The position numbers and the translations under genes are program-made. From a virus (Duplodnaviria > Caudoviricetes): a stretch of DNA of 53,905 nt. The stretch spans positions 1-53,905 of the IMG/VR virus record IMGVR_UViG_3300048836_001050; one strand, 5' to 3'. Of the stretch, positions 1 to 50,610 are shown piece by piece (the first letter of the stretch is position 1; every line of letters starts with the position of its first letter). Under the pieces are notes generated by a model. It had not been told where the DNA came from and ran no database searches. It was given only the letters and a program-made list of their open reading frames with translations.

Positions 1-664
1 CGATTTTCATGGAATCGCCGGTATTGCTGTTGGAAGTGCCGTCGCGCCGCTTGAAATCGGCGGGCAGCGTGCTGGCGACGCCATAAGGGATTTTCGGCTT
101 GCCCGGCTGCGCACCGGTAAACACCGAACCGGAGTACTCCCAGGACTGCTCATACATCCCGAATTCCGGGTTGAACTCATAAACCGGCTTGGCGAAGCGC
201 AAATACTGATTGTTGAGATTATAAATGCCGACGTTGGAGCCGAACGTCTCGCAGTCGGCGTTGTCGCCCGCAGGAGCGTTCCCCCACGTGCCGTCCGACC
301 AGGCTTTGAAGTTGGGGGTGTCGAGCCAACTCGCGTTGTCGGCGCTGGTTTGCACCTGAACGAACCCGGCGTCTCCGGGAAACTCGGGATTAAAACCGAA
401 CTCGGTGGGAAACTTCAACTCAACGTAAATACCGCGTGGCGTGCCTAATACGGGAGAATGCATAGTTTTGTCCTTACGATTTTTTTCACTTCTCTTGCCG
501 GATTGCCGGATTGCTGCCGCTTTTGCCGGTTTCGTCTTTACATCCGGCACTACCTCACGACCTCGCCAACCCGCCACCGTCAGCAGTGCCAGAATGGGGA
601 GTACTCCCAGCGTCACCGCCAGCAGCGTGCGCGGGCTGATTTCTTCTTCGTTTTGCCGCTTCAT
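1..664 (-). CDS. hypothetical protein, truncated by left window edge (possible virion or membrane-anchored protein)
   Basis: Not in the ORF track. Manual translation from ATG 664: MKRQNEEEISPRTLLAVTLGVLPILALLTVAGW...MHSPVLGTPRGIYVELKFP..., open to position 1. Alternative in-frame start at 463 after AAGGA. Confidence 0.7.
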   Translation of the reverse strand, partial: MKRQNEEEISPRTLLAVTLGVLPILALLTVAGWRGREVVPDVKTKPAKAAAIRQSGKRSEKNRKDKTMHSPVLGTPRGIYVELKFPTEFGFNPEFPGDAGFVQVQTSADNASWLDTPNFKAWSDGTWGNAPAGDNADCETFGSNVGIYNLNNQYLRFAKPVYEFNPEFGMYEQSWEYSGSVFTGAQPGKPKIPYGVASTLPADFKRRDGTSNSNTGDSMKI

Positions 665-687
665 CTCAACTCAGGAAAATTATTTAA

Positions 688-717
688 TTGACACCGGCTA
701 TCACTGCGATATACAAT
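688..717 (+). promoter_or_regulatory. sigma70-type promoter, probably giving a leaderless mRNA, with a candidate operator in the spacer
   Basis: TTGACA (688-693), 18 nt, TACAAT (712-717); ATG at 725 with no SD. Quasi-palindrome TATCACTGCGATA at 699-711. Confidence 0.7.
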
Positions 718-724
718 ATCCACC

Positions 725-1690
725 ATGAAACAAGGCTCGTTTTTTCGTCTGCCCGAAACCACGCGCGACAAGCTGCGCCGGTTGGCCGAGCAGGAACGTC
801 GCACCCAGACTGCACAGGTCGAATATCTCATTGAAAAGGAAGCAGAACGCATTCTGCCCAAGGAGACCCCAGTAAATCGTCAATCGAAAATCGTCAATCG
901 TCAATCCGGTTTCACCCTCATCGAACTTTTGGTCGTCATCGCCATCATAGCGATTCTCGCCGCGATCCTGTTCCCGGTTTTTGCCAGAGCGCGAGAAAAC
1001 GCGCGCCGCGCCAGTTGCCAATCGAACCTGAAGCAGATCGGTTTGGGCATCATGCAATATACGCAGGATTATGATGAGCACACTCCTTTGCGCGATGGTG
1101 CGGCTCCTGGCGACGTGTCGGCTTCCAATCCCTACGGTTGGGCGGATGCGATTCAGCCGTATCTTAAAAGCACGCAGATTTATAAATGCCCCAGCGCAAC
1201 CGGCACCTTTTCCAATGATCCGACACAGGAAGGCTACACGACGTATTTTTACAATACCGGCGTGAATAACATCAGCATGGCGGCGATTGAATATCCTACC
1301 CAAACGCTTTTGAATGGCGACGGCAAGGTTGAAAAATCGCGTCACGCCTCCAATGGCTGCATTACCGGTACCACGAGTACTCCCATCACTGACGCCGACG
1401 CCGGTCAAGCCGGACAGGGTACATGGGGTGTCAGCGGCACGCCCTGCACCAGTGGCGATTTTGACCCAAATAACGCTATCAATTATCTGGGCGCGGCAGG
1501 CGGCGCCGATGCTGCATTTGGCCGCCATCTCGATGGCGCGAATTATAGCTTTGTGGATGGTCATGTGAAGTGGCTTAAAGGCGATCATGTTTCCGGTTCC
1601 GGGTCTGCCATCAATGGTTCAACGAAAATTTATAACGCCAACATCAAGGCCGAAGACGCGGGCGGTAAAGCGACTTTCAGCAGAAATTAG
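725..1690 (+). CDS. RHH/Arc-like N-terminal domain fused to a DUF1559-family prepilin (N-terminal cleavage/methylation motif, H-X9-DG C-terminal motif)
   Basis: [46 protein letters not shown] and [17 protein letters not shown]. Residues 1-45 ([33 protein letters not shown]) show the beta-alpha-alpha RHH pattern. Confidence 0.85.
875..906 (+). repeat. heptamer tandem repeat AATCG(TC/AA) x4.5
   Basis: AATCGTC AATCGAA AATCGTC AATCGTC AATC, encoding [12 protein letters not shown] between the RHH-like part and the pilin cleavage site. Confidence 0.85.
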
Positions 1691-48048: not shown

Positions 48049-48666
48049 ATGTCCGCCCCCGCCTGCGATTATTATCCCGATCCGCCGGTATGCGGTTACG
48101 AACCGGAGTACTCCCGACCTGCGGATTTATCGTGGATGAAAAGTTGCCTAAAGACGCAACATCGGCCTCGGGTGATACATCGGTCTCAGCCGCAACCTCG
48201 GGCCGGAGCAGAGCGGTCGTTGGGAAGCACTCCGCTTTTCCTCGTGCCGCACAGCAGCGCGGCTAACGGGCTGCGCGAAGAGTTTGCGCCGCCGTCGTTA
48301 ACCGTCATCGCGGGCGGAAAAACCGCCCAAATGAAAGCCCTGGTGGAAGAACCGCGACGCGACGGTGTGGCCGTGGTGGTGGAGTGCGCGGCGGAGCTGG
48401 AGTGGGTGTGCCAGGTGTTCAAGCTGGAAGCCAACGAGCGGGCGATTTTGGACGTGGAGCCGCACCTGCGCCGCGTGACGCGCGCAGCCAATCAGCTCAC
48501 GCGCGAAGCCGCACGCGTACGGCGCAAGCAATTAATGAACGAATCTGACGATAGTTTGTTTTTGGAATTGGAGATGAACAACTCCAATGAGCACTCTGTG
48601 CGGATTCCAGTGTTTAACAATCTGGACGCTGCTGTCGAATACCTGAAGCGGCGGCGCGAGAGATAA
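48049..48666 (+). CDS. hypothetical protein
   Basis: 205 aa ORF after the repressor candidate; start uncertain. Confidence 0.55.
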   Translation: MSAPACDYYPDPPVCGYEPEYSRPADLSWMKSCLKTQHRPRVIHRSQPQPRAGAERSLGSTPLFLVPHSSAANGLREEFAPPSLTVIAGGKTAQMKALVEEPRRDGVAVVVECAAELEWVCQVFKLEANERAILDVEPHLRRVTRAANQLTREAARVRRKQLMNESDDSLFLELEMNNSNEHSVRIPVFNNLDAAVEYLKRRRER

Positions 48667-48711
48667 GTTCGTTTGCATCGGTTCACCGGCAGAACCACTA
48701 AGGAGTAAAAA

Positions 48712-49380
48712 ATGCAATGTCCCGCGTGTAAATACATGATGGATTCGTTTGACACCGAATGTCCTCGGTGTCAAGGAAAAGGAATCGCACCGGCTCCCAC
48801 TGCACCGCCGCCTCCAACTCCCCCGGCGCAAAAGCAGACGCTGCCTCCTGCCCCTCCCGCAGCGCCGACACTTTCACCTGCCCTGAAAAACGTCGGGTTT
48901 TGCTACAAATGCGGGGAAAAGATTCATAAAACAGCCGCTCACTGTAGCCACTGTGGGGCCATGCAGGGGAAGCAAGTCGGCGGGTTCCCTTGGGGCAGCG
49001 TCATCGGCGGCCTATTTTTGATTCTTTTGGTTGGCGGCGTTCTTTATGGTTTTAAGTTCGCGGGCGGCTTAATTAACAGTGATGGCACGCTGACCGACGA
49101 CATCAAAGTCACCAGGAAAATCAAAGTCACCAAAGAAGAGCTTCAAGATCAGATTCAATCGGAATACACCAGCGAGCTATTGGCGAAACAAACTGACGTG
49201 GAATCAAGCGAAAAGGTATCATGCACGAAGGTTGAGCTGGTGAAGGAGTCTGAAACCGATGTCGCCATCAAATACACCGGTTTTGCCGAGTTGTCCGACA
49301 ACACCAGTATTGATGTCGTCGTCACCATCGATAAGAGCGACGGAAGCAGAATTTGGAAAACGGGCCGTGGGCGTTCGTAG
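48712..49380 (+). CDS. double zinc-ribbon membrane protein
   Basis: CPAC..CPRC, Pro-rich linker, CYKC..CSHC, TM, extracytoplasmic domain. Confidence 0.8.
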   Translation: MQCPACKYMMDSFDTECPRCQGKGIAPAPTAPPPPTPPAQKQTLPPAPPAAPTLSPALKNVGFCYKCGEKIHKTAAHCSHCGAMQGKQVGGFPWGSVIGGLFLILLVGGVLYGFKFAGGLINSDGTLTDDIKVTRKIKVTKEELQDQIQSEYTSELLAKQTDVESSEKVSCTKVELVKESETDVAIKYTGFAELSDNTSIDVVVTIDKSDGSRIWKTGRGRS

Positions 49381-49434
49381 GGGCATGACGTAGATATAAA
49401 CGGCCACCGGCAGGCCAGCTTTGGAGAAACCAAT

Positions 49435-50610
49435 ATGGATTTCATCGAACAGTTGCAACAACTCGCCAAGCGCATTCCGGCTTTATGCGAGCACTTGCAA
49501 ACCGAAGAAGCAACCAAAAACGCCCTTGTGATGCCGTTCATCGCCGCTTTGGGTTACGACGTTTTTAATCCGCTTGAAGTCGTTCCCGAACTGAACGCCG
49601 ACTACGGCACCAAAAAAGGCGAAAAGGTGGATTACGCCATCAAAAAAGACGACAAGATCATCATGCTTTTCGAGTGCAAGCACTGCGGCGGCGATCTTTC
49701 CATTGATCATGCTTCCCAACTCTTTCGCTACTTTTCCGTGACCGAAGCGCGCATCGGAGTACTCACCAACGGCATGACGTATCGCTTTTTCACCGATCTG
49801 GAATCGCCCAACAAAATGGACGAAAAGCCTTTTTTGGAAGTGAATATGCTGGAGCTAAGCGAGGCGGCGGTCAGTGAACTGAAAAAACTCACCAAGCCTG
49901 CGTTCAATTTGGACGAGCTGATGACCTCAGCAGGCGAACTCAAATACACGCGCGAAATCAAGCGCTTGCTGGCCGAGCAGATGGCCGCGCCATCGGAAGA
50001 ATTTGTGAAGCTGTTCGCTTCCAAGGTTTACAGTGGCGTGCTGACGCAGGGACGTCGCGAGTTTTTTACCGACATCACCAAGCGCAGTTTCAATCAATTG
50101 GTCAATGAGCGTATCAATGTACGCCTCAAGTCGGCACTGTCCGCGCCGGGCGATACCGAGCGCGACGCGCCGACCGTCGCAGTAGATGACACGGACAGCG
50201 TTACATCCGCATCTGTTGCTGAAGCCGAAGTTTCTACACCCTCGCGCGAAGATCTACTCGAAACCACCGAAGAAGAATTGGAAGGGTTTTACATCGTGAA
50301 GTCCATGCTGCGCGATGCCGTCGAACCGTCGCGGATCACGCATCGCGATACGCAAAGCTACATGGGCATTTTGCTGGACGACAATAATCGCAAACCTTTG
50401 GCACGTCTTTATTTCAATCGCTCACAAAAACATCTTGGGCTGTTTGACGAGCAGCGAAATGAAGAGCGCCTGCCGATTGACGACTTGAACGACATCTATA
50501 AACACGCCGCGAAACTCAAACGCGTACTGGCGTTTTACGAAAAAAGTGCAGAGAGAGGCGACGGTGCCGGAGGCGAAGCGTCTGGCGACAATGATGCGCC
50601 GGGCGCTTGA
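49435..50610 (+). CDS. stand-alone type I restriction HsdR N-terminal-like nuclease protein
   Basis: TEEATKNALVMPFIAALGYDVFNP...EKVDYAI...FECK...QLFRYF...LTNG. Confidence 0.85.
   Translation: MDFIEQLQQLAKRIPALCEHLQTEEATKNALVMPFIAALGYDVFNPLEVVPELNADYGTKKGEKVDYAIKKDDKIIMLFECKHCGGDLSIDHASQLFRYFSVTEARIGVLTNGMTYRFFTDLESPNKMDEKPFLEVNMLELSEAAVSELKKLTKPAFNLDELMTSAGELKYTREIKRLLAEQMAAPSEEFVKLFASKVYSGVLTQGRREFFTDITKRSFNQLVNERINVRLKSALSAPGDTERDAPTVAVDDTDSVTSASVAEAEVSTPSREDLLETTEEELEGFYIVKSMLRDAVEPSRITHRDTQSYMGILLDDNNRKPLARLYFNRSQKHLGLFDEQRNEERLPIDDLNDIYKHAAKLKRVLAFYEKSAERGDGAGGEASGDNDAPGA

Follow-up and report, generated by a model that had tools for sequence, protein, structure and literature searches.

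The question raised by this locus is why a tailed phage should carry one short palindrome dozens of times, and what that palindrome has to do with the phage's host. The locus is the virus record IMGVR_UViG_3300048836_001050 (Duplodnaviria; Caudoviricetes), whose whole length of 53,905 nt was analysed and is called the window throughout. Spread along it are 32 exact copies of the 8-mer GAGTACTC (594 per Mb), built on the core AGTACT and extendable to the 12-mer GGGAGTACTCCC. An earlier note on this DNA, made from the letters alone, had proposed that the motif behaves like HIP1, the highly iterated palindrome (HIP) of cyanobacteria, and that it is the signature of a host lineage. That core inference of a HIP-type host-lineage signature with a new motif, mirrored by the phage, is supported by the analysis described here, and we think it likely that GAGTACTC is a HIP of the host lineage which its phage shares. 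The note's further proposals, a long-resident phage and a motif made by methylation-linked repair or serving as a protein-binding or uptake site, are conjectures.

The palindrome in the phage window

The 32 starts given in the earlier note are all exact matches, and there are no further copies. The note had expected fewer than one such 8-mer in 54 kb, and the null models agree: 100 dinucleotide shuffles of the window gave a mean of 0.12 copies and a largest count of 1, and Markov models gave 0.13 (first-order) and 0.80 (third-order). The observed count is 40 to 270 times the expectation, and together with its overlaps GAGTACTC heads the list of 8-mers in the window. The G+C content, which the note had put at about 60%, was measured at 57.5%. 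Its six perfect 12-mers and many one-mismatch copies were recovered as 6 exact and 11 one-mismatch copies of GGGAGTACTCCC, against 0.01 expected.

The core AGTACT occurs 45 times in the window. It is flanked by G and C on both sides in 32 copies, on one side only in 12 and on neither in 1; the 13 incomplete sites start at 5787, 7497, 10216, 19390, 27021, 28517, 32808, 36098, 37768, 38207, 42174, 43773 and 52360. Outward from the core, the left flank reads G in 84, 62 and 42% of the copies and the right flank C in 84, 62 and 66%, with a weaker C..G preference beyond. Likeness between copies is gone within about 6 nt of the core and the outer flanks are unique, so GAGTACTC is not part of a longer repeat. 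Departures from the motif concentrate at positions 1 and 8 (12 copies). The 18 possible internal one-off variants amount to 10 copies in all where about 6 are expected, and because this is near expectation the motif can be called sharply defined. AGTACT is also the context of 45 of the 83 GTAC tetramers in the window, where 3% would be expected.

The sites could have been placed at random, with a spacing slightly more regular than chance gives (coefficient of variation 0.75, against 0.97 for random sites, P ~0.05). Genes were called with a codon log-odds model trained on 14 long open reading frames (ORFs), by which 87% of the window is coding. Called genes contain 25 of the 32 sites, with 5, 7 and 13 in frames 0, 1 and 2, where they are read as EYS, GVL and ST(P/L) respectively. 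The other 7 lie outside called genes, some of them within ORFs rejected by the gene caller. The sites show no preference for regulatory positions; they are mostly intragenic and occupy all frames. Rare codons are found inside AGTACT, namely 16 of the 120 AGT, 16 of the 106 ACT and 14 of the 62 GTA codons.

Synonymous codons were then permuted within each gene in 1000 shuffles, with the 7 intergenic sites held fixed. The shuffled windows held 8.1 copies of GAGTACTC on average and 12 at most, and none of the 1000 reached 32. Since the 7 fixed sites are part of that mean, about 1.1 genic copies are expected by chance where 25 are observed. The earlier note had read the copies in three frames and between genes as a pattern at the level of DNA, which agrees with this result, and had proposed Markov models and codon-preserving shuffles as a check; GAGTACTC is enriched over each of them.

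One alternative is that there is no DNA-level feature at all, and that codon or peptide bias, a dispersed repeat or miniature inverted-repeat transposable element (MITE), or an assembly or adaptor artefact lies behind the excess. It could appeal to the frame counts, in which frame 2 (Ser-Thr) is the most frequent with 13 of 25, and to other sequence sets, in which the same 8-mer sits in tandem arrays or longer repeats. It does not explain the 25 genic copies against about 1.1 in codon-preserving shuffles, the use of every frame plus intergenic DNA, the unique flanks, or the gap-free alignment of sites to homologous residues in DUF1559 and MutS2 relatives (below), by which the sites are not insertions. 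We regard it as extremely unlikely. A dispersed repeat of the MITE or repetitive extragenic palindromic (REP) kind was rejected on the same grounds: the likeness fades about 6 nt out, 25 of 32 sites are intragenic, and there are no gaps against homologues.

Altogether, GAGTACTC is the most over-represented short palindrome of the window, it is dispersed, its excess goes beyond codon usage, and its variants differ at the outermost positions. A HIP in the sense of Elhai 2015 and Xu 2018 occurs at about 500 to 2500 per Mb and is the most over-represented oligomer (in passages of PMC4390886 and PMC5861425).

The same motif in cellular DNA

Metagenome DNA was scanned with the pattern GGGAGTACTCCCN{100,130}GAGTACTC, and the 90 stretches returned were sorted by ORF coverage, G+C and inspection. 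There were 23 prokaryote-like loci with dispersed sites (84,440 nt) and 54 eukaryote-like loci, the latter classed by exclusion with 5 inspected; the remaining 13 were set aside and taken as chance, each holding only the two copies that the scan requires. The 23 prokaryote-like loci contain 105 GAGTACTC and 132 AGTACT, which gives an upward-biased density of 0.70 GAGTACTC per kb after subtracting the two required copies per locus. GAGTACTC is the top palindromic 8-mer in most of them. Their flanks are like those of the window (G 84, 63 and 48% on the left; C 89, 70 and 46% on the right), and so are their variants, with A at position 1 in 11 copies, T at position 8 in 6, and each internal variant present 0 to 2 times.

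The genes of these motif-rich contigs are ordinary chromosomal ones. L196, which is chromosomal, encodes MutS2, a GT2 glycosyltransferase, a luciferase-like monooxygenase and an M20 peptidase. Others encode a hybrid histidine kinase and an HD-GYP-type regulator (L199), GGDEF-EAL (L239), AcrB (L214) and DUF2339 (L244). The MutS2 of L196 has unnamed relatives up to 92% identical. Among its 120 listed relatives 9 rows carry names, and all 9 are Abditibacteriaceae, Abditibacterium, Abditibacteriota, Armatimonadetes/-ota or Fervidibacter, at 42-56% identity. In a quick maximum-likelihood tree built from 50 rows, L196 falls in a 14-row clade (Shimodaira-Hasegawa-like approximate likelihood ratio test, SH-aLRT, 100) nested in a 42-row clade (100); the larger clade contains all rows whose names begin with Abditibacteri and is separate from the Fervidibacter/Armatimonadota rows. 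Two contigs, L118 and L121, were rejected as not Armatimonadota-like.

L173 has 4 GAGTACTC and 3 perfect 12-mers in 5 kb, and carries a lambda-family portal gene at 2568-4181. Because of this gene, and because none of its proteins is similar to those of the window, it seems to come from another phage or prophage, unrelated to that of the window, which also bears the motif.

The phage and the motif-rich contigs also have other features in common. CGGCCG is depleted in both (4 copies against 55 expected in the window, 5 against 69 in the contigs), as is GTGCAC (0 against 10, and 1 against 9.7). Further palindromes avoided in the window are GCATGC (1 against 15), AGGCCT (0 against 5), ACATGT (0 against 5) and CTAG (2 against 23), and the contigs hold no GGGCCC where 10.5 are expected. 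The palindrome avoidance common to phage and contigs probably reflects restriction systems of the host. The earlier note had remarked that phages usually avoid palindromes; this is true here for sites such as CGGCCG and GTGCAC, and it makes the excess of AGTACT more striking. Avoidance of GTAC outside AGTACT was dropped as an explanation, since the window shows a modest deficit (38 copies, expectation 61 to 89) and the contigs show none (77, expectation 88).

With AGTACT masked, the tetranucleotide deviations of the window correlate at 0.81 with those of the pooled contigs, the pool being longer than any control locus. Among 108 control loci the best reaches 0.61 (median 0.44). Ten contigs are 4 kb or longer, and when each is compared alone, 4 of them score above that best control (0.63-0.71); the window's own 8-kb pieces correlate with the rest of the window at 0.63-0.76. 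The only proteins of the motif-rich contigs that resemble proteins of the window are DUF1559 and PAS proteins, among them a DUF1559 protein on L226 which is 36% identical to the phage's. The nearest Atlas clusters of the phage DUF1559 gene are labelled "commonest Armatimonadota", and a 90% identical homologue, P0241, lies on a short metagenome contig.

Relatives of the phage were collected from IMG/VR. The 2 loci related by capsid (45-55% identical) hold 0 copies of GAGTACTC, as do the 26 loci found through the two methyltransferases (28-48% identical). IMG/VR was also searched twice for pairs of GAGTACTC, and among the matches listed no other contig has the motif dispersed genome-wide: those listed consist of chance pairs, repeats in proteins, local arrays of short length (L469, L454, L485) and longer repeats in a single giant-virus bin. 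No site-bearing phage gene has a counterpart on L001 or L002. The idea of a host-lineage signature is thereby supported: the dispersed motif with its GGG/CCC extension is dense in the Abditibacteria-like contigs, present in L173 and absent from the phage's relatives.

These results bear on the possibility that the phage owns the motif, as binding or modification sites for one of its proteins (the ParB-methyltransferase fusion, the second ParB_N protein or the C5 methyltransferase) in condensation, packaging, protection or regulation. Two ParB_N-domain proteins and two predicted DNA methyltransferases are encoded in the window, and palindrome arrays like operators or iterons in L469, L454 and L485 make it plausible that proteins binding the palindrome exist. 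However, the motif is equally dense in chromosomal contigs with housekeeping genes, whose similarity to the phage is limited to DUF1559 and PAS; most sites lie within genes, in any of the three frames, and regulatory positions are not favoured; and there are 0 copies in the relatives whose methyltransferases are homologous to those of the window (28 to 48% identity). Ownership by the phage seems very improbable to us.

A host in the Planctomycetota, the other DUF1559-rich phylum, was suggested by the DUF1559 gene and was rejected for the genomes sampled: at most 3 copies of the 12-mer were found in 401 Planctomycetota genomes, like the reversed control, and five genomes had the 8-mer at background (~5 per Mb).

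How the sites may arise and what they may do

The MutS2 gene of L196 carries 6 GAGTACTC sites. One falls on the family-conserved EGVLLS, where it is a matter of synonymous codon choice, and another on GSTPA, whose residues are kept in relatives of 72-75% identity; the residues of both persist in MutS2 relatives at 63-75% identity. Three more (LQSTLG, DQSTLR, EGVLRL) have their required residues only in the 92% relative. In the phage DUF1559 gene the residues STP at the site are also found in the 90% homologue, and SSP is found in a 73% one. The sites align gap-free with the MutS2 and DUF1559 homologues, which makes them products of substitution, in part non-synonymous, rather than of insertion. 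Since sites in the host gene come about both through synonymous choice and through amino-acid replacement, the force acts on DNA and can override protein sequence.

The best explanation as a whole, which we consider moderately probable, is a lineage HIP of an Abditibacteria-like clade that is mirrored by a phage replicating there. On this account GAGTACTC, with its extended form GGGAGTACTCCC and its core AGTACT, would be the highly iterated palindrome of an uncultured clade grouping with Abditibacteria (Armatimonadota), and the phage of the window would replicate in that lineage and bear the motif at about host density. Substitutions would build and keep the motif. The likeliest cause would be a sequence-specific DNA methyltransferase coupled to biased mismatch repair or repair of a very-short-patch type, perhaps helped by selection, if some host function reads the site in its methylated state, and phage DNA would meet the same process whenever it replicates or while it resides in the cell. 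A methyltransferase with biased repair was proposed for HIP1 by Elhai (in passages of PMC4390886). Methylation-linked repair specifically is, for the present motif, a possible mechanism rather than a probable one.

The motif could instead be functional and selected, as a mark of the host's own DNA (for uptake or recombination, or as a strand or segregation signal) which the phage is selected to carry. Exact copies dominate and internal one-off variants are near background in phage and contigs, as under purifying selection, but sharp motifs are also predicted by a biased-repair drive. The spacing is slightly more even than random, but that result is marginal. HIP1 has been argued to be an uptake sequence and is reported to improve transformation in a methylation-dependent way (in passages of PMC13756078), and DUF1559 type IV pilin-like proteins are encoded by both the lineage and the phage. 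We find selection for such a mark doubtful; it is compatible with the lineage HIP and does not exclude it. A more particular form of the idea is unlikely. In it, a methylated AGTACT motif in the Abditibacteria-like lineage would be a self-DNA mark for its uptake, recombination or repair machinery, possibly acting through the expanded DUF1559 type IV pilin-like proteins, and would be an independent HIP outside cyanobacteria. If that were so, the lineage's phages would have to copy the mark, and a palindrome-avoiding phage would end up saturated with one palindrome.

Several points weigh against a lineage HIP shared with the phage. The left 3.4 kb of the window, around the DUF1559 gene, holds 1.76 GAGTACTC per kb, against about 0.5 elsewhere (P ~0.009), and some of the window may therefore have had a history of its own. 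The cellular evidence consists of 23 short metagenome contigs (84 kb), not of complete Armatimonadota or Abditibacteria genomes; their density is biased upward because the scan demands two sites and the classing was by hand, and their common origin comes from L196 (taxonomy) and L226 (DUF1559) only. No methyltransferase gene was seen in these 84 kb of host-like DNA. A scan of genome contigs with the 14-mer CGGGAGTACTCCCG gave 120 single chance matches in unrelated taxa, and the background level in the 401 Planctomycetota genomes excludes those genomes only. The motif as a tie between phage and host is partly circular, and the ties that are independent of it (avoided sites, tetranucleotides, DUF1559) are compositional and no proof of infection.

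The likeness to HIP1 (GCGATCGC) is that of a GC-flanked palindromic octamer which is dispersed in coding and non-coding DNA and can be extended outward. HIP1 occurs at about 0.5 to 2.5 per kb and departs from its consensus mostly at the outermost positions (in passages of PMC4390886 and PMC5861425). Density, dispersal, outward extension and outermost-position variants all match, which bears out the comparison with HIP1 drawn in the earlier note. The difference is in core and lineage: (C)GATC(G) in cyanobacteria, AGTACT in an Abditibacteria-like (Armatimonadota) lineage here. With AGTACT as the core, the GATC and CGATCG methyltransferases (Dam-type) that are tied to HIP1 cannot be the agents. 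A control pair scan of IMG/VR with HIP1 found at least 33 loci with at least 0.4 extra HIP1 per kb, some with about 3, among 90 loci of at least 5 kb in the matches listed, where host flanks are possible. It follows from this control that viral contigs with the host's HIP at host density are common in the case of HIP1.

HIP1-poor cyanobacteria have alternate HIPs (GGGATCCC, TCGATCGA, GGCGCC, rCCGGy, GCsGC), each accompanied by a methyltransferase specific for that motif (in passages of PMC4390886). One iterated palindrome can therefore be replaced by another within a lineage, all of these cases being cyanobacterial; GGGATCCC has a GGG...CCC frame in common with GGGAGTACTCCC. The main text of PMC4390886 contains 0 occurrences of AGTACT or GTAC strings.

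Two other kinds of dispersed sequence invite comparison. DNA uptake sequences (DUS in Neisseria) and their Pasteurellaceae counterparts (USS) occur about once per kb, are lineage-specific, and are carried too by phages and mobile DNA of the same lineages; they are non-palindromic and are read by a competence receptor. The present motif is likewise short, dispersed, typical of a lineage and found in a phage, but it is palindromic. Some mycobacteriophage clusters have tens of copies of a short dyad-symmetric sequence along the genome, which is longer, mostly intergenic and cluster-specific, whereas GAGTACTC is mostly intragenic and common to bacterial chromosomal DNA.

A search for published descriptions of the motif (the 8-mer, the 10-mer, AGTACT, and palindromes of Abditibacterium or Armatimonadetes; Elhai in its main text only) found none, the 8-mer and 10-mer matches being unrelated uses; the earlier note had known of none either. 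The literature since 2016 on iterated palindromes, among the papers listed, deals with cyanobacteria or their proteins throughout. HIP1 has been known for three decades, yet its origin and function are still debated, and the HIPs found described, in the papers covered, are all cyanobacterial, the dominant ones built on GATC/CGATCG methylation sites. The AGTACT case would be a second, independent HIP in another phylum, with an unrelated core; strong enough to alter the protein product of a housekeeping gene, it would also recur in a phage that purges other palindromes. It would turn a curiosity of a single lineage into a comparative problem, in which genes shared by both systems become candidates for HIP machinery, such as an orphan methyltransferase, a Vsr- or MutS2-type repair function, or competence genes. 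In practice the motif could help to predict hosts, as a sharp marker for the phages of a lineage with hardly any cultured members, and could provide a primer site for typing in the style of HIP-PCR.

The phage genes and the palindrome in other settings

The copies of the motif and three genes that have been mentioned are placed in Table 1.

Table 1. Positions in the window of the 32 copies of GAGTACTC and of three predicted genes.
Feature	Position	Strand	Remarks
GAGTACTC site	132..139		frame 0, WEYSGS; one-off 12-mer CGGAGTACTCCC
GAGTACTC site	599..606		frame 1, LGVLPI; perfect 12-mer 597-608
GAGTACTC site	1375..1382		DUF1559 pseudopilin gene; frame 2, TTSTPI
GAGTACTC site	1818..1825		frame 2
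GAGTACTC site	2361..2368		outside called genes
GAGTACTC site	3184..3191		perfect 12-mer 3182-3193
GAGTACTC site	4893..4900		826-aa tail-region gene
GAGTACTC site	5610..5617		826-aa tail-region gene
GAGTACTC site	5824..5831		perfect 12-mer 5822-5833
GAGTACTC site	9110..9117		910-aa gene
GAGTACTC site	14053..14060		exact match
GAGTACTC site	15245..15252		abuts minus-strand start codon
GAGTACTC site	16998..17005		perfect 12-mer 16996-17007
GAGTACTC site	18914..18921		exact match
GAGTACTC site	19813..19820		intergenic by gene calls
GAGTACTC site	21957..21964		exact match
GAGTACTC site	25988..25995		terminase large subunit gene
GAGTACTC site	26096..26103		terminase large subunit gene
GAGTACTC site	26278..26285		terminase large subunit gene
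GAGTACTC site	27750..27757		intergenic by gene calls
GAGTACTC site	30356..30363		PAS-domain gene
GAGTACTC site	31878..31885		perfect 12-mer 31876-31887
GAGTACTC site	33245..33252		within ORF 32917-33273, rejected by second gene caller
GAGTACTC site	34885..34892		perfect 12-mer 34883-34894
GAGTACTC site	36585..36592		5' end of C5 methyltransferase gene
GAGTACTC site	40256..40263		exact match
GAGTACTC site	43399..43406		AAA ATPase gene
GAGTACTC site	44335..44342		AAA ATPase gene
GAGTACTC site	44812..44819		AAA ATPase gene
GAGTACTC site	46846..46853		switch between minus- and plus-strand gene blocks
GAGTACTC site	48106..48113		exact match
GAGTACTC site	49757..49764		HSDR_N-domain gene
DUF1559 / prepilin N-methyl pseudopilin-like gene	725..1690	+	Pfam PF07596 and PF07963
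ParB-like domain fused to predicted N6/N4 DNA methyltransferase	27808..29334	-	PF01555; phrog_498 and ParB phrogs
Predicted C5 cytosine DNA methyltransferase	35227..36654	-	PF00145; phrog_116; metagenome homologues up to 86% identical

The window is a fragment of a siphovirus-like tailed phage; the record is linear, with a CheckV completeness of 57%. Its structural and packaging genes include those for a tape measure protein, a major head protein and the terminase large subunit. Further genes encode Sipho_Gp157, a replication initiator with iterons, the AAA ATPase, PAS, TPR and HSDR_N proteins, and a second ParB_N protein. A scan of about 50 ORFs of this 57% complete record revealed no integrase, and the window has no tRNA and no att-like direct repeats. 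A PDB search found no relative of the ParB-methyltransferase fusion and, for the C5 methyltransferase, only DNMT2-like N-terminal matches, which did not reveal its specificity.

Three routes to the host through the phage's own relatives were tried and given up. Megablast of 25 kb against phages gave no match, and the capsid was likewise without a phage match. The terminase is at most 48% identical to terminases of Streptomyces and Actinoplanes phages, which makes it uninformative on the host.

A C5 methyltransferase homologue, P0142, is 56% identical to the phage protein and is interrupted by intein (Hint) domains. It and a DUF1559 homologue, P0334 (48%), are both recorded on one contig of 4,719,681 nt, which may be the complete genome of a related host.

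Two sets of iterons, at 38307-38381 and 38977-39048, lie inside or beside the replication-initiator gene (38408-39649). One consists of about 3.5 copies of the 15-bp unit GCGCCTCACGGTCAT and the other of 3 copies of a 22-23-bp unit, and they likely mark a replication origin. Elsewhere, two plus-strand genes, 48712-49380 (with a weak double-zinc-ribbon match) and the TPR gene 50678-52069, have a 95-nt 5' stretch in common (48703-48797 and 50680-50774, 73% identity). Since it includes the ribosome-site region, the two genes have paralogous N-terminal modules.

The palindrome was also met in settings where it is not dispersed in the manner of a HIP: in the eukaryote-like and giant-virus (GVMAG) matches it lies in arrays or in longer repeats. 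In 3 of the 5 inspected eukaryote-like loci (L183, L221, L253) it is mostly in tandem arrays. These three and other low-coding loci among L172-L261, such as L182 and L222, have a 15-bp sub-period (GGGAGTACTCG plus 4 nt) in units of about 69 bp. Some of the arrays are in AT-rich DNA, and L183 carries DUF3435 and ferric-reductase domains. These tandem arrays are a phenomenon distinct from the dispersed bacterial sites.

In other viral contigs there are local arrays of the palindrome, at 719-760 of L469, 6216-6346 of L454 and 140-280 of L485. Their units include an 18-bp unit with CAGAGTACTCAG in 3 copies, GAGTACTCCCGT in 3 copies, and CCGGAGTACTCCGG repeats, and they resemble operators or iterons to which a DNA-binding protein would bind.

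The GVMAG matches come from one bin in IMG/VR (L386, L388, L408, L410, L417-L419, L422, L436, L445, L450, L452 and L456). AGTACT occurs there about once per kb, in at least two dispersed repeat families of about 50 nt centred on GTGAGTACTCA, and the same families are found on L460, L462 and L467. The genes of these contigs include a myosin head-BIR fusion, HSP70 and a caspase-like peptidase.

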